Origin: Bdellovibrionales bacterium
GTDB taxonomy: Bacteria > Bdellovibrionota > Bdellovibrionia > Bdellovibrionales > JAGQZY01
Direction of reading: 5' to 3'
NCBI GenBank assembly: GCA_964230645.1
Contig: CAXRHT010000002.1
Location: forward strand, 192,001 to 256,000
DNA: 64,000 nt
A program made the position numbers and the translations under genes. Positions 36,946 through 64,000 of the stretch are shown in pieces. The first letter of the stretch is position 1. Each line of letters begins with the position of its first letter. The notes beneath the pieces are model-generated. The model saw nothing but the letters and a program-made list of their open reading frames with translations. It did not search any database and was not told the DNA's origin.

Positions 36946-37842
36946 TTAAAACACAACGGCGGGCAATTCAGGAACTGTTCGAGGTGCGCCATATTCGTGG
37001 CTTGGTAACTGAGGAACCTGCGGATCGGCGGGAATAAAAGGCGTTCGGTAAGAACTTTGTCGATGATCACAAGTCGCTGAAAAGTTATTTTCGCCAAAGG
37101 TTTCCTTCATAAATTCGAGAGCTTTTTGGCAAGAGCGATCTTGAGTTCTGCCGCCTAGAGAATCAAAGGCTTGAGGCATTGTCACGTAAGCGGCAATGAC
37201 TTCCGCAATTTCTTCCCCACGATCTCTGGTACAGTAGTTTGTTAACCGGCAAACTTCCCCATTCATATGCTGGAGATATTTGTTCATGATCTCAGAGTTA
37301 TTGTTTCCGGCAATATAGTGACCTATCTCATGGGCGATCAGGGCATGATTGTCTTGTCCACCACAGGAACTGGTGTGACCTGTCCCAGTTTGATTTTGAT
37401 TCCCACCAGTCAGTTGAATTTGGTTTCCTATACGTCGAGAATTGGTAGCCGTAGACTGAGGATTGGCAAAAACGATTTCAATAGGATCACCATCTTCTAG
37501 GGCAGTCATGCGGCCGTCTCCTATACGATCAATAGCCTCAACCACTCGTGCCACAGCCACAACTCTAGGGTCATTATAATCAGAGAAAGGTTGCATATTT
37601 TGGGCTCGCCCTCGCTCTTTCGGATTGTTCCCTGTATAGAGTTCGATATTATTGCGCTGAAGCAAATTGGGAATGGACTGGGGGGTACCTTGGGCTAAAC
37701 ATCTTCCAAGACCCGCATCGGTATTCAGCTTAATAAGGTCTCGGCAATTATTTTCGTTGGCATTTTCTAAGGAACATCCATAAGCCGAGTAGACTTTTGC
37801 AGAACTCAACAGAACAAATAAGACCACAAAAAACCGTTTCAT
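36946..37842 (-). CDS. Secreted HExxH zinc metallopeptidase-like protein
   Basis: Signal peptide; IAHEIGHY followed by EEIAE; multiple Cys. Confidence 0.7.
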   Translation of the reverse strand: MKRFFVVLFVLLSSAKVYSAYGCSLENANENNCRDLIKLNTDAGLGRCLAQGTPQSIPNLLQRNNIELYTGNNPKERGRAQNMQPFSDYNDPRVVAVARVVEAIDRIGDGRMTALEDGDPIEIVFANPQSTATNSRRIGNQIQLTGGNQNQTGTGHTSSCGGQDNHALIAHEIGHYIAGNNNSEIMNKYLQHMNGEVCRLTNYCTRDRGEEIAEVIAAYVTMPQAFDSLGGRTQDRSCQKALEFMKETFGENNFSATCDHRQSSYRTPFIPADPQVPQLPSHEYGAPRTVPELPAVVF

Positions 37843-38069: not shown

Positions 38070-38098
38070 TTGACTTACTTACATATAACTTACATATT
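38070..38098 (+). promoter_or_regulatory. sigma70-like promoter overlapped by direct-repeat operator (ACTTACATAT x2, 11-bp period)
   Basis: TTGACT at 38070-38075; repeats at 38077-38086 and 38088-38097; near-identical inverted copy at 63107-63129. Confidence 0.7.
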
Positions 38099-38124: not shown

Positions 38125-38766
38125 TTGATGAATCCAGCCGCTTTGTTTTTAAAAGAAGAGGACAGAAGAAAGCTTTGTCTGCTTGAGGATAAAAAAGAAC
38201 TCAATGCAAAAGAGCTTGAGAGCCCGCAAACCCCTTTGGCTTCTTTGAATGCTTTCCTAAAAGCACAGAGCTTTAAACACCAGCTCAGTGAGTGGGGTAC
38301 ACCCCATGGGAGTTTTTCAAAGCTCTTACCAAGCCTAATCGCTGCAAGCTTACAAAAAGAAGTTCTATGGCTGAGTGACCAGCAGGACTCGCTTATCTAC
38401 CCGCAAGCCTGGCGGGAGTTGCACTTTGATTTGAATCAAATTTATTTTTTAAGAGAAAAACGTGTTTTACGCAGTCTTCGCACCTTAATTCGTGAAGAGA
38501 GCTTTTCTTTTATTATGATCGACTCTCATCACTTCTTTTCAAAATCGGACCTTCACTTTTTGTCGCAATCTGCCCGCTCACAAAGAATGACTCTTTTTCT
38601 TTTTCGTCCTTATTTTCTAAGTGCCAAAAAAGGCAATCCCTTTTGTCGATTGCGTCTGAATAGCTCTTATGAGCTATCCAGCCAAAAGTTTCATTTATCT
38701 TTTATTAAAGGCGGGGAGAGAAAACGACATTTTAAAGCAAGCTTTGGTGAGGTTTTTAGTGGCTAA
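38125..38766 (+). CDS. imuA: ImuA-like protein
   Basis: First gene of the cassette; LSEW, VLWL..IYPQAW...LNQIYF, FIMID and RLRL resemble a degenerate RecA/SulA-type fold. Confidence 0.65.
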   Translation: MMNPAALFLKEEDRRKLCLLEDKKELNAKELESPQTPLASLNAFLKAQSFKHQLSEWGTPHGSFSKLLPSLIAASLQKEVLWLSDQQDSLIYPQAWRELHFDLNQIYFLREKRVLRSLRTLIREESFSFIMIDSHHFFSKSDLHFLSQSARSQRMTLFLFRPYFLSAKKGNPFCRLRLNSSYELSSQKFHLSFIKGGERKRHFKASFGEVFSG

Positions 38767-40228
38767 GCTTCTCTCCCTTTTTAATTACGAAAAATCAAAA
38801 GAGGTTTTTCTTCCTTATCTGATCTTCTCAAGCTCTCAAAAAAAGAACCTCGACTTTCTCTCACCAAGCCTTATGAGAATCAGTGAAGACCTTTTTGTGA
38901 TCGATCTACAAATCACCCAAAGCTATTGGGAGAAACGAGCCAAAAAAGAGAGCAAAGAGCCCCAAGAACTCATTGAAGAAGTGTTTCAGTCTTATTTGCC
39001 TGAAAGTCCAATTCAACTCTTTTGCGAGCATCCTTTTCAAGGTCTTGTTTTTTTTCTTTATCTTAAAGAGCAAAACTCCAAAGGTTTTTTTAGCACTCAC
39101 TCCCTTTTTGCCCGTAAAATTTATGACAATATGGGTTGGCACTCTTGGATCTGGGCGGCTCGCCTGATCAATGACTGTTTTGAAGACAATAACTCCCTTG
39201 TTAAAGATAGAAAAAACTTCTCGTCTCAACTAAGACGTTTTTTAAGCTTTATTGAACGCACCGACCTCACTGAATTTTCCGACCTTAAACAGGCTCACTT
39301 TCACGAGATCCAGCGCCGCTTCCAAGGTTTTCTTGGGAAACTTTGGCTATGGAGCTTCCCGCAAGCCGAAGAAAGCGAAGACCTCAGCCTTTTTTCCCAC
39401 TACGAAAAACTAAAAGGCTTTGCTTGGATTCCCTATGAAAACAGTCCTAAACCACAGACTAAGACCTGGCTTGAGTACCCCTTGTCTTACTGGGAGGAGA
39501 TTAAACCTCTTTTGCTTTGTGATTTTGAAAAGCTAAGTCAGAAAAAAGAGCTACAAAGTCCCTATAAGCTTTTAAACATTGAATGGAGCTTTACTCTTTA
39601 TGATCTCAGTCAGCTTAAACAAAGTATTCCTTTCAAACATCCTCTTTGCCTCAGTTTAGAAAGGAAAAAGGATTTTGCCACTCTTACAGGTCAGTTCTCC
39701 TTTGCCTTTGAACAATTCAAAGAAACACTCAAAGAGAAAAATCATGATCTTGACGTTATTAACACCCCTCTTATTCTGGGATGGACTCTTAAGGTTTCTC
39801 AAAGGGTGCAAATTCGCGAGAAAAATCAGAATTTTATCTTTGAAAGTAATAGTGAAGTCCAGAGTAGTGCTGAGGAGCTAAAAGAGCTTAATAACAAATT
39901 ACAAAAGCCCCTTGAGTCTTATGTCGCTTTAGAGCACTTTATCCCCGGTCTTGATTTTATCTCTCAAGACCTCCACGAGAATGACAATCCTCTTTTTAAT
40001 GAAAAGCTTTTAATGCCAAAGCCTTTTTACCTATTTCCAAAGGAAAGAAAACTTTCGGCCTCTGAAATTGTCAGTTCGCAATTTCTTGATCGCAGCAGTC
40101 AAGACTGGTGGAACAGGGAAGAGACTTTGGATTCTGTGCGCGACTGCTTCATTTGCCAATTAAAAAATAAAGAGCTTGTCTTTGCTTTTCGCAATTTTCA
40201 AGGAGAGTGGTTCCAGTATGGCTACTAG
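38759..40228 (+). CDS. imuB: Divergent ImuB-like protein
   Basis: Lies between imuA and dnaE2; IQRRF; C-terminal DRSSQDWW...RDCF...FAFRN..GEWFQYG matches the ImuB C-terminal signature. GTG start at 38759. Confidence 0.7.
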   Translation: MAKLLSLFNYEKSKEVFLPYLIFSSSQKKNLDFLSPSLMRISEDLFVIDLQITQSYWEKRAKKESKEPQELIEEVFQSYLPESPIQLFCEHPFQGLVFFLYLKEQNSKGFFSTHSLFARKIYDNMGWHSWIWAARLINDCFEDNNSLVKDRKNFSSQLRRFLSFIERTDLTEFSDLKQAHFHEIQRRFQGFLGKLWLWSFPQAEESEDLSLFSHYEKLKGFAWIPYENSPKPQTKTWLEYPLSYWEEIKPLLLCDFEKLSQKKELQSPYKLLNIEWSFTLYDLSQLKQSIPFKHPLCLSLERKKDFATLTGQFSFAFEQFKETLKEKNHDLDVINTPLILGWTLKVSQRVQIREKNQNFIFESNSEVQSSAEELKELNNKLQKPLESYVALEHFIPGLDFISQDLHENDNPLFNEKLLMPKPFYLFPKERKLSASEIVSSQFLDRSSQDWWNREETLDSVRDCFICQLKNKELVFAFRNFQGEWFQYGY

Positions 40229-59922: not shown

Positions 59923-62900
59923 ATGAAATTCCTGCTGGTCTGCTTTGTGTTTTTTCTCCCTTTTACTTTTGCTGAGGTAACTTTAGCAGGTTCAACAAAA
60001 CAAAAGCATTCACCTAGAAAAATAGAATGGGGCTACAAGAAACTACCTATTTTAAAAAGACAAAAGAGGGATTACTTACCAAGACGCGTTCGTGTGGGAC
60101 GGAAAACATTTTTAAAAGCCCGCATGCAAAAAGGTTCCGCCACCCATCCTTACTGGGGCATTGAACAGCTTTATACCGATGTTCGTTTAGAGAAAATTGT
60201 GGCGGTGAAAAAACGAGTGGTCGTTAGTGGTGAAAATGTTGTGGGTGGTTGGAGAAAGTTAAATAAAGGCTATGTGCTTCATCTAAAAAGAGGCCAACTT
60301 GTAACAGCCTATTTCACCCAAGGATTAGATCACAGAGAGCGTTATTACTTGGAAAGAAAACTGCGCCGCGCTCATAAAGTCGCCCATTGGACCGAGCTTT
60401 TTTTCAAATCCGCTTATGCCAGTGAAGTGACGGGTGGAGGAGGCACCGGTGCAACTGACCCAGCTCGCCCCAGAGAACTAACAGGAGATGATTTTGGCCC
60501 AAGACAGATCGCTGTGCACACGGCGAAGTGTGTGGGCTCCTCGGTCGCTGAAGGGGCTGTGGAGGCAGTGGGAAATTCTTGGGAAGGCTTAAAGAGTGCG
60601 GGATCTTCGGTGCGCGATGCAGGCTCAGCCCTTGTGAACGATTTTCGAGGTTCCATGCAAAATGTTGGAAATTGGTTATGGGACCGGGGTGAAGCCGTGG
60701 TCGATGCCGGAGGACAGGCCGTAAACTATGTCGGCGAGGCGATCATAGATCCCAGCATGGTTCGCGATGACATCATGAATGCGGTCAACCAAACAGTGGA
60801 GGTCGCCCAAAGACTTTATCAAGCTCTCGCCAACACCATAACTGGCTGGGATGAACTGCCCGGCCCCATCAAAGCGGAAATAATGTGTATGGGAATTCTC
60901 ATCGGAGGCCCCACTTTGGCTGCAGGTCTACTAGCTTGGACCGGTGTGGGATCGGCTATGTCGGCAAGGCTTGCCGCATGGGTGGCCGGTTTTGCAGGGA
61001 GAGTGGCGGGAGTCCTTCCACAACTGATGCAAATTTGGAACAGTGCTAGTGGAAGTGTTCAAGAAAAAATGACTCAAATTAGACAGACTTGGACAAACTT
61101 TATGGAGGATGAGTCTTCAGGCTCTCCCACTCCCGTCACAACAGCTGGAGCGGCTAGTGGTAATGGAGATTATGTGGGATTTCGAAATCGATATCCCGAT
61201 GGGAGTGCTCGTAACCAAGCCATGGCCGCTAACCGCGCTTTGAACGATAGCGAAAGAATCTCCGCCATTGAGGAACAACTCGGCGTCACTCTGACAGCCT
61301 CCCAACGACAAAGACTTCTTGAAATTCATAATGTGCAATGTGCTTCTCAGACCTGTACGGCTCAGGAGATCAGAGACTTAAAAGATCTCCGCGGTGTCAT
61401 GGCGATGTTCCCCGATGTTCCAAGGGAAAGAGTTCTTGATCTTTACCGCTCAAACCTACTGGGAGGAGAAGAAGTGGATATGTCGGAATTTGCCGATCTT
61501 CTCAATCAACCCGCTTTTCCAAGAGCCCCTAGACAGACTCCTGATGAAATCGCGGCGGCTCGGTTAAGCGGAATGCAAAGCGACTTAAACAGTATTGACG
61601 AGAGAATCGCCCAACTTCAAGCCAATCCCAATCACTCCTCTATCGAGATGGCGGACCTTAGACGTCGAAGGAACTTACTTCTCAGTGCCATCGCAAGAGA
61701 AGAGGTGGAACAAGCCGATGTTGACATGAGTGAGTTTGAAGCTCTCTTGCAACAACCCGTTAATCTTTCTCGTAGAGATGCTGATGCTCCGGAAGGGGAA
61801 GCTGTAGAAATTGATCCCGATTCACGCTTGGCTCGTGATGCCTATGGAGCGAATGCCGATGAAGACGATCAAATGGGTGACGTGATGGCAGCAGTGAATC
61901 AAGAGATCACAGACGCTGACCGCGAAGAATTTCAGGCTTTACTTAGAATGACAGGAATTGAAAGACCGATTCTGGAAAGAGCCCACGATAGATTTGAAAG
62001 AGCCACCGAGACGGCTCCTGAATCTGCTCGTTATGTTTCGCCTTCCACAGGTGAAATGACCGACGTTCGCGTGATTGGGGTAGGTGAGGGTGAAGGACTG
62101 GATCAATTGGTTCGAGTTCGAGTTCGCACAGAAGATGGTCGTGTGGTAACTAGAAATGTTCGCATGGGATCTCTTGTTCCCGACGGAGAGGCTGACACTC
62201 TACAAGCCATAAGTGGCCCCAATGGCACTCAAGGTATTGTCGATGAGATGGCAAGGAACGCAACCAGTGACCGTGAAAGAATTAGAGAATTGGACCGGGA
62301 AATAGAGCAAGCCTCAAGAGATCGGGACATGGCAGCCTCAATAAAACTGACCAATGAACGCGACGAACTAGCAAGAAGAGACACCCCATTAAGAAACAAT
62401 GAGGTCGATGCCATTCAAGCCGTATCAGAAGCCTTTACTGCGGAAGGTGTGGCCGAGCGTATTCCTCTTAATGTTTTACCCAATGGACAGATCCAAATAC
62501 GGCCGGGCTACAATGGGCGAGAGTTAAGTTTCACGCCAGAAGAGATGAGAGACTTTCAAAGAGTGCAGTCCTATGTGGATGCAAGAAGGGGAGCAGCAAG
62601 GGCCGAAGAAGACCAGGCTTTATTTCAAAGAGTGAGTGAACTCAACCCCAATGAACTTTTAAGGCAAAGAGCTTTGAACCGCCAACGACAACTCACCCGT
62701 GAGATGGCAAGCTTTACTAACAATCGATCAAGGCCTTATGAGATTCCTCGTTTTGCAGAGTACAGACAGTATGACCCTAGAAGCCTTTCACAGGCCTACG
62801 GATCTTCAAGCTCCATTCGCCAAGCTCTCGAAACGGTTGATACAATTATTCGCTCACCCAGTCCCACTTTAGGGACACAAGACATCACTCAACTTAATCG

Positions 62901-63033
62901 TGCATTGGGAACTTTAACGGATCGAAGATATCAAAATATTATCAACGAAAACCCAGCGCTCAGAGACTACCTTAACTTCGCCGCCAACCGAGCAGCGGAA
63001 TCCTCACTTCGTCATATGCGAGACGGACTTTAG
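59923..63033 (+). CDS. Large secreted hypothetical protein with internal hydrophobic Gly/Ala segment
   Basis: 1036-aa ORF with signal peptide; internal repeat VDMSEFxxLLxQP x2. Confidence 0.75.
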   Translation: MKFLLVCFVFFLPFTFAEVTLAGSTKQKHSPRKIEWGYKKLPILKRQKRDYLPRRVRVGRKTFLKARMQKGSATHPYWGIEQLYTDVRLEKIVAVKKRVVVSGENVVGGWRKLNKGYVLHLKRGQLVTAYFTQGLDHRERYYLERKLRRAHKVAHWTELFFKSAYASEVTGGGGTGATDPARPRELTGDDFGPRQIAVHTAKCVGSSVAEGAVEAVGNSWEGLKSAGSSVRDAGSALVNDFRGSMQNVGNWLWDRGEAVVDAGGQAVNYVGEAIIDPSMVRDDIMNAVNQTVEVAQRLYQALANTITGWDELPGPIKAEIMCMGILIGGPTLAAGLLAWTGVGSAMSARLAAWVAGFAGRVAGVLPQLMQIWNSASGSVQEKMTQIRQTWTNFMEDESSGSPTPVTTAGAASGNGDYVGFRNRYPDGSARNQAMAANRALNDSERISAIEEQLGVTLTASQRQRLLEIHNVQCASQTCTAQEIRDLKDLRGVMAMFPDVPRERVLDLYRSNLLGGEEVDMSEFADLLNQPAFPRAPRQTPDEIAAARLSGMQSDLNSIDERIAQLQANPNHSSIEMADLRRRRNLLLSAIAREEVEQADVDMSEFEALLQQPVNLSRRDADAPEGEAVEIDPDSRLARDAYGANADEDDQMGDVMAAVNQEITDADREEFQALLRMTGIERPILERAHDRFERATETAPESARYVSPSTGEMTDVRVIGVGEGEGLDQLVRVRVRTEDGRVVTRNVRMGSLVPDGEADTLQAISGPNGTQGIVDEMARNATSDRERIRELDREIEQASRDRDMAASIKLTNERDELARRDTPLRNNEVDAIQAVSEAFTAEGVAERIPLNVLPNGQIQIRPGYNGRELSFTPEEMRDFQRVQSYVDARRGAARAEEDQALFQRVSELNPNELLRQRALNRQRQLTREMASFTNNRSRPYEIPRFAEYRQYDPRSLSQAYGSSSSIRQALETVDTIIRSPSPTLGTQDITQLNRALGTLTDRRYQNIINENPALRDYLNFAANRAAESSLRHMRDGL

Positions 63034-63035
63034 TA

Positions 63036-63063
63036 GAAAACAGGGGCTAAGCCCCCTGTTTTC
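63036..63063. terminator. Intrinsic terminator
   Basis: GAAAACAGGGG...CCCCTGTTTTC stem. Confidence 0.7.
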
Positions 63064-63084: not shown

Positions 63085-63129
63085 TTGAACTTCTAAGAAA
63101 TTCGATATATGTATGTTTTATGTAAGTAA
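63085..63129 (+). promoter_or_regulatory. sigma70-like promoter with inverted copy of the imuA operator
   Basis: TTGAAC at 63085-63090; ATATGTATGTTTTATGTAAGTAA at 63107-63129. Confidence 0.65.
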
Positions 63130-63154: not shown

Positions 63155-64000
63155 ATGGATGTACAGAAAAAACTTGAAATACTGGCCGATGCGGCCAAAT
63201 ACGATGCTTCTTGCGCCAGCAGTGGATCTAAAAGAAAAGCTAAAAAAGGGTTCTTGGGAGACTCCAACTCTGTTGGAATTTGCCATAGCTACACACCCGA
63301 TGGACGATGCGTTTCTCTTTTAAAAGTTCTTTTTAGCAATCACTGTATTTATGATTGCAAATACTGTGTGAACCGAGTGACAAGCGATGTCCCACGCGCC
63401 AGTTTTACGGTGCAAGAAATCGTGGACCTTACCATCAACTTTTATAAAAGAAACTATATTGAAGGCCTCTTTTTAAGCTCTGGAATATTCAAGGACTCAG
63501 ACACCACAATGAACCAACTCACGGAGGTGGCTAGAAAGCTCCGTGTAGAGGAAAGGTTCAATGGCTACATTCATCTTAAAGCTGTGGCCGGAGCCAGTGA
63601 CGAAGTTCTGGCTGAGGCCAGTCTTTATGCCGATCGGCTCAGTGCCAATATCGAACTCTCTGAAGATCAGGAACTAAAAGAATTAGCCCCAGGAAAAACC
63701 CATGCCTCCGTTTTTCAAGCCATGGGAAAACTCAAAGAGGTAAAATCTGAGGGAGCCACCGAACAGAAGAGCCGACTTCCCTCTGCTTTAAAAAATCGCC
63801 TCACGCCAGCCGGACAAAGCACACAAATGATCGTGGGAGCCACGGGGAGCGCAGACCGAAGTCTACTTAAAAGGTCCAGTGAGCTCTATTCACGCTTTGA
63901 ACTCAAAAGAGTCTATTACTCCTCCTACAGTCCAATTCAAAAAAGCTCTCCTCTTCTTCCCTCCAAACAACCGGAACTCGTTAGAGAGCATCGACTCTAT
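63155..64000 (+). CDS. Putative DNA modification/repair radical SAM protein (TIGR03916-like; truncated by window end)
   Basis: Not in the ORF track; GGAGG SD, MDVQKKLEILADAAKYDASCASSG...GICHSYTPDGRCVSLLK...NHCIYDCKYCVNR (CxxxCxxC)...NFYKRNYIEGLFLSSG...AGQSTQMIVGA. Confidence 0.9.
   Translation, partial: MDVQKKLEILADAAKYDASCASSGSKRKAKKGFLGDSNSVGICHSYTPDGRCVSLLKVLFSNHCIYDCKYCVNRVTSDVPRASFTVQEIVDLTINFYKRNYIEGLFLSSGIFKDSDTTMNQLTEVARKLRVEERFNGYIHLKAVAGASDEVLAEASLYADRLSANIELSEDQELKELAPGKTHASVFQAMGKLKEVKSEGATEQKSRLPSALKNRLTPAGQSTQMIVGATGSADRSLLKRSSELYSRFELKRVYYSSYSPIQKSSPLLPSKQPELVREHRLY

Follow-up and report, generated by a model that had tools for sequence, protein, structure and literature searches.

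The window, that is, the whole 64,000-nucleotide stretch of Bdellovibrionales DNA analysed here, contains an imuA-imuB-dnaE2 cassette and, at its right-hand end, the beginning of a radical SAM gene, each preceded by a copy of one short tandem repeat. The features relevant to the analysis are listed below, where G000 stands for this genome.

38070..38098, plus strand: sigma-70-like promoter TTGACT-17-CATATT, from a consensus scan (9 of 12 matches)
38078..38097, plus strand: predicted LexA operator of imuA-imuB-dnaE2, with TTACAT at 38079-38084 and 38090-38095 (period 11)
38128..38766, plus strand: imuA, divergent RecA-fold protein of 212 aa from ATG, weak profile match to RecA (E 0.005)
38669..40228, plus strand: imuB, divergent Y-family-polymerase-fold protein, longest frame 519 aa
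40176..43472, plus strand: dnaE2 (imuC), error-prone DNA polymerase, NF004225 at 1092.5 bits (cut-off 939)
63107..63126, minus strand: predicted LexA operator of the radical SAM-UdgX operon, with TTACAT at 63125-63120 and ATACAT at 63114-63109 (19.9 bits)
63155..64000, plus strand, cut by the window end: putative DNA repair radical SAM gene, TIGR03916 at 414.5 bits (cut-off 343.5)
G000:C2:256411-257793, after the radical SAM gene: TIGR03915-UdgX fusion, TIGR03915 and TIGR03914 both above cut-off

The gene labels of the original prediction were confirmed. The dnaE2 and radical SAM genes exceed the cut-offs of their families, and imuA and imuB, which have no Pfam or NCBIfam match, were assigned through protein models: that of imuA (pLDDT 82) matches RecA (E 1.7e-9), and that of imuB (pLDDT 69) matches Dpo4/Dbh/Pol IV (E 1.3e-7). 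The true start of imuB probably lies later than that of its longest frame. RecA-like, Y-family-like and DnaE2 genes are thus consecutive, as in an imuA-imuB-dnaE2 mutagenesis cassette. A 298-aa frame (36946-37842), which begins like a signal peptide and matched no family, is divergent from imuA, 236 bases from the first repeat; relatives differ in this frame, and it is unlikely to be a target. In two loci of the same genus (L129:980-1702 and L130:1053-1772), a gene for an SOS-response-associated peptidase (SRAP; PF02586 shown for L129) is divergent from imuA and may share its box. On the other side of the window, a terminator-like hairpin (63043-63055) just before the second repeat closes a 1036-aa frame (59923-63033) with no Pfam or NCBIfam match.

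The two sites are identical at 21 of 23 positions when 38075-38097 is compared with the reverse complement of 63107-63129, a figure that was recomputed and agrees with the one first given. Site 1 is a perfect tandem of ACTTACATAT (units 38077-38086 and 38088-38097, period 11). Site 2 departs from it by one mismatch per unit and is reversed relative to its radical SAM gene; it reads TTAC-N7-ATAC, so that the pattern TTAC-N7-TTAC, originally described for both sites, applies to site 1 alone. As for the proposed overlap with sigma-70 promoters, site 1 stands directly behind TTGACT and occupies the spacer and -10 element of the predicted, consensus-type promoter, and TTGACA is found at the same offset in the same-genus imuA leaders L128-L131. 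At site 2, the consensus scan called no promoter, and a TTGAAC is present at 63085-63090. The 10-mer unit alone is barely enriched in the window (6 matches with at most one mismatch, compared with 2.4 expected; 3 of 100 shuffles scored as high), and the evidential weight comes from the tandem.

No other copy had been noticed initially, which is correct for the window but not for the genome. Across the whole 3.78-Mb sequence, only four places lie within four mismatches of site 1: the two in the window and two that overlap each other upstream of lexA. A further 2 places have five mismatches, 10 have six and 63 have seven. The six places with up to five mismatches are the two window sites, the two overlapping copies on contig C3, one copy on C2 and one more. 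The C2 copy is located 9 bases before a gene encoding a 726-aa FAN1-HTH/VRR-NUC/exonuclease protein. The radical SAM operon lies 25 kb from the VRR-NUC nuclease gene here; in another genome of the genus (L150/L266, G008:C16:13147-16661), the two are divergent neighbours with one common box of 25.2 bits.

We scanned the genome with a 20-column matrix trained on other genomes, using 48 distinct lexA-leader sites chosen for TACA in both halves. The rare motif is found at DNA-damage genes, and its top five matches were imuA (26.5 bits, the best in the genome), the VRR-NUC nuclease (24.3 bits), lexA (23.8 and 22.9 bits) and the radical SAM gene (19.9 bits), the three non-lexA matches being independent of the training set. 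The sixth score, 15.6 bits, is well below these. It falls at the start of a 153-aa gene, FliG-like by eye (G000:C1:243569), and was judged a chance match, since the reversed matrix yields 3 matches at 16 bits. At 18 bits or more, the reversed matrix gave none, while six permuted matrices gave 0-5 matches at 18 bits and 0-1 at 20 bits. The possibility that the motif is common in unrelated promoters, raised with the original prediction, was checked as well: only 5 of the 3033 upstream regions of frames of at least 150 aa reach 16 bits. No matrix site was found upstream of recA or dinB in this genome, and the regulon therefore appears small. We also considered each 11-base unit as a worn TTAC-N3-GTAA palindrome, an idea discarded because matrix positions 9-12 read T, A/T, A, C/T rather than GTAA. 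The palindrome occurs in neither strict nor loose form at the four loci, and no TAC-N3-GTA was found within 150 bases of any of them.

One LexA was found in the genome. The protein scores above the TIGR00498 cut-off, contains an HTH domain and an S24 peptidase, and retains intact Ala103-Gly104, Ser138 and Lys175, which align with the cleavage-site and catalytic residues of E. coli LexA. Its closest named records (82-86% identity) come from Bdellovibrionales and Pseudobdellovibrionaceae assemblies. The two overlapping copies in the lexA leader form three units (G000:C3:442087-442117), an arrangement indicative of self-regulation. With this protein as query, no LexA was found in 35 of 251 genomes, most of the listed ones being small genomes (1.2-2.4 Mb) of family f5; G001 and G012, from the genus studied here, likewise yielded none. 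The core of the original prediction is supported, namely an SOS-type operator in the form of a direct repeat, common to both loci and with the half-site of the Bdellovibrio bacteriovorus box. On this sequence evidence, the TTACAY repeat of period 11 is very probably the operator of this genome's LexA, and we treat its copies as candidate sites.

The scan of relatives suggested with the original prediction was positive for lexA and for the region upstream of dnaE2, positive in part for the radical SAM gene and dinB, and almost entirely negative for recA. The lexA leaders came from 78 genomes, this one included, drawn from the better matches to its LexA; TACG-type LexA (see below) and the closest named LexA records fall outside this sample. 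A direct repeat was present in 73 of the 78 leaders, comprising 44 of 46 in f10, the family that holds Bdellovibrio, and 29 of 32 in other families. The TTAC-N3-GTAA palindrome was present in 33 (strict) or 39 (loose) of the 46 f10 leaders and in none of the other 32. The lexA leaders of genus g3 (L014-L016) carry at least five units in the 11-base register.

The imuA operator is kept at the same place in four same-genus orthologues (L128-L131, 26.5-28.6 bits), and a fifth (L142) scores 18.6 bits. Upstream of dnaE2, at least 18.6 bits were reached in 15 of 20 regions (20 fetched, one of them too short, and L101 added); of the five low-scoring regions, two (G034 and G024) have TACG repeats and three begin with a second lexA carrying TACGG repeats. 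The radical SAM family is present in 10 of 55 genomes, and 5 of these 10 have the box, always reversed as at site 2; the other five gave no match at 11 bits. Among 30 genomes, dinB was found in 22, with 10 leaders reaching 16 bits and 12 without a box, and recA in 29, with only 2 upstream regions at 16 bits. In B. bacteriovorus, Campoy 2005 reportedly described lexA and the imu cassette as LexA targets and left recA out. Canonical regulons have the motif upstream of recA, but the scarcity of the box at recA agrees with the title of that paper, going by which such a site is no requirement in this order. The only distant VRR-NUC orthologue (G049) lacks the box. Of 121 genomes of the class, 94 contain an exact YTTACAY-N4-YTTACAY; the matches total 282, compared with 49 for the backward control, and each of the 27 genomes of genus g25 has 3 to 9 of them. 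As these genomes are kin, the counts reflect spread rather than independent trials.

Two papers (PMC8565304, PMC3323433) give the B. bacteriovorus LexA box as TTAC-N3-GTAA, a motif attributed to Campoy et al. 2005, which is cited in PMC3901139 as well. Loci of g25 whose LexA proteins are 99.6-100% identical to proteins named B. bacteriovorus place this motif in a larger array: their lexA leader reads TTGAC followed by TTAC-N7-TTAC-N3-GTAA-N8-GTAA, and the imuA leader of G060 reads TTAC-N7-TTAC-N3-GTAA-N7-GTAA. The palindrome of B. bacteriovorus-type lexA and imuA leaders accordingly occupies the centre of a pair of direct repeats that face each other, with half-sites on both flanks. It was found in f10 only, beside direct repeats. 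The dinB leaders contain no palindrome (0 of 22), and in all six Bdellovibrio (g25) genomes dinB has a lone repeat on the gene start (22.6-27.8 bits), reversed relative to the gene. On these sequences, we lean towards regarding the TTAC-N3-GTAA of B. bacteriovorus as the junction of two facing direct repeats. The original prediction had offered a switch from palindrome to direct repeat in this lineage as one explanation. That idea finds no support: the direct repeat is general in the class and present in B. bacteriovorus itself, and the palindrome was seen in one family only, where it accompanies repeats.

Other repeats were noted in B. bacteriovorus-type genomes. Exact copies precede a 'mobile mystery protein A/B' pair and also lie next to genes of HipA-like and MqsA-like type (L111:1501-1517, L113:1501-1517 and L117:1501-1517), making SOS control of island toxin-antitoxin modules possible. 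A weaker repeat (L106:1501-1517) is found in 4 of 4 such genomes between a gene for a DpaA/LdtF-like peptidoglycan enzyme and a divergent fliL, both assignments being below curated cut-offs.

The letters of the box vary with the LexA type. In G034 and G024, which have a divergent LexA, the lexA box reads TACG, as do the imuA repeats. The residue aligned with E. coli Asn41 is Asn in 75 and Phe in 3 of the LexA rows with TACA repeats (n=78, including 11 Balneola-type rows), and Gly in 15 and Ser in 8 of those with TACG repeats (n=23); a further 15 rows, in which no repeat was called, did not enter the count. Within Bdellovibrionota, this sorting corresponds to a single split of the tree (66 hand-chosen rows, recognition helix excluded), and for this reason the setting of the box letters by residue 41 is put forward as a hypothesis rather than a result. 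Three genomes (G082, G106 and G094; L135, L137 and L144) encode two LexA types; their second lexA, with TACGG repeats, stands at the head of the imu cassette, and the TACA-type lexA is located elsewhere.

By analogy with the established SOS mechanism, from which binding, repression and damage induction are inferred, LexA would occupy a head-to-tail pair of TTACA(C/T) half-sites that are spaced by one helical turn (11 bp) and so lie on the same face of the DNA. The bound repressor would block RNA polymerase at the lexA, imuA-imuB-dnaE2, radical SAM-UdgX and VRR-NUC promoters. Upon DNA damage, LexA would leave its sites after a self-cleavage likely stimulated by RecA, and ImuABC, the radical SAM-UdgX proteins and the nuclease would be made. 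For alphaproteobacterial LexA, it has reportedly been proposed that one DNA-binding domain of the two-fold dimer turns on its linker so that both halves of a direct repeat can be contacted. A dimer that turns a domain in the same way would likewise read the direct repeat here.

An alternative is that LexA has two binding modes, TTAC-N3-GTAA being the true, and perhaps the strongest, dimer site in Bdellovibrionaceae and the direct repeats a second mode. The palindrome, which comes from experiments, is the published motif (PMC8565304, PMC3323433). Its 3-base centre is kept in f10, with 37 facing pairs at this spacing in lexA leaders and a strict palindrome in 5 of 6 Bdellovibrio imuA leaders, and may be a real binding site. 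The right-hand pair has period 11 in 20 of 38 f10 arrays and period 12 in 14, that of B. bacteriovorus lexA included, and two f10 leaders (L205 and L211) have the palindrome with only a degenerate repeat. However, the palindrome is missing from the lexA leaders outside f10, from the four loci of this genome and from the dinB leaders. The two facing repeats at imuA of G173 (L127) are spaced by 16 bases instead of 3, and f10 LexA hardly differs from the LexA studied here in its DNA-binding helix. We therefore hold a two-mode LexA to be unlikely; if it were true, the window sites would still be LexA operators and the published motif would stand.

The identity of the DNA-binding protein may also be questioned. 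Period-11 direct repeats are typical of other winged-helix regulators, and recA has no box, as could be the case if a different repressor or activator controlled lexA together with the repair genes in a LexA-independent damage response. Such a non-LexA regulator, also contemplated in the original prediction, is disfavoured because lexA itself carries three copies, multi-copy arrays there being a mark of self-repression, and because the letters of the box follow the LexA type and residue 41, albeit through one tree split within Bdellovibrionota. Furthermore, Balneola LexA binds a like repeat (PMC7739468). This makes a different regulator very unlikely. Less probable still is a repressor-free reading, in which the repeat belongs to a promoter class (as a sigma-factor element or a conserved spacer) or has arisen by chance. 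The first unit does follow directly on TTGAC at imuA and lexA, with the second overlapping the -10 element, but the box is reversed relative to the gene in all five radical SAM operons that carry it and in the six Bdellovibrio dinB leaders, so it cannot be a sigma element, and its rarity among the upstream regions of this genome also speaks against this reading.

Read as a LexA operator, the repeat gives a class of predatory bacteria its probable SOS operator. This reading can be extended to a wider proposal, to which we give even chances: that Bdellovibrionota LexA reads direct repeats as a rule, the B. bacteriovorus palindrome being only a junction; that the regulon is larger than published, including dinB, radical SAM-UdgX, VRR-NUC and island toxin-antitoxin genes; that residue 41 sets ACA or ACG; and that the Balneolaeota box is convergent. 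The operator reading itself offers a testable revision of a motif that has served since 2005 to illustrate LexA diversity, and it predicts LexA targets, dinB first among them, that a palindrome search does not see. The lone, triple and facing arrays, which near-identical proteins would read, are good material for studying how a two-fold dimer reads a direct repeat.

Among the closest known systems is that of B. bacteriovorus. This species belongs to the same order, its LexA is 61-63% identical to the one described here, the recognition helix is nearly identical (ASFNSVQNYLK in f10 LexA, ASNNSVQNYLK here) and the half-site is the same, but its box consists of inverted half-sites 3 bases apart, of which the four loci of this genome have none. 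We found no report of a direct repeat as a Bdellovibrionota LexA box in listings of open-licence literature; in PMC13148647 and PMC3789691, Bdellovibrio is named solely in the reference lists. Alphaproteobacterial LexA also reads a direct repeat of period 11, given as GTTC-N7-GTTC in PMC8565304 and PMC3323433, and its regulon contains imuABC and a UDG-linked repair system; the letters of its half-site differ from TTACA(C/T).

A further close system is the Balneolaeota box, the direct repeat TTACACATATTTTWTACATA, validated by gel shift (Kilic et al. 2020, PMC7739468); the probes listed for Balneola vulgaris LexA in its supplement 3 fit (T/C)ACAT-N6-TACAT, again with period 11. It is on account of this closely similar repeat that the original description as a new SOS box is not supported: the kind of box is already known, and it is its use by Bdellovibrionia that was not encountered in the literature listings. 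Both boxes repeat an ACA(C/T) core at period 11, and both LexA proteins have Ser39 and Asn41 (E. coli numbers). The Balneolaeota regulon (PMC7739468) likewise includes lexA, translesion polymerases and a radical SAM protein, and also an SOS peptidase; it contains recA, unlike the regulon described here. The halves differ too: both start with (C/T)TTACA here, but in Balneola the first is usually CACA. Our matrix consequently gives no more than 2.2-14.9 bits to 17 Balneola-type loci from a metagenome scan, one of which encodes the protein named B. vulgaris LexA. A recent transfer of lexA between Balneolaeota and Bdellovibrionia was considered and finds no support in identity, as the B. vulgaris-type protein is 31% identical to the LexA of this genome and E. 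coli LexA 34%. No Balneola-type protein is among the 150 clusters nearest to this LexA (best 35%). In a quick tree of 45 rows with long branches, the Balneola and Bdellovibrionia proteins fall on separate branches, which favours separate origins, although their union in one clade was not rejected (AU p 0.09).
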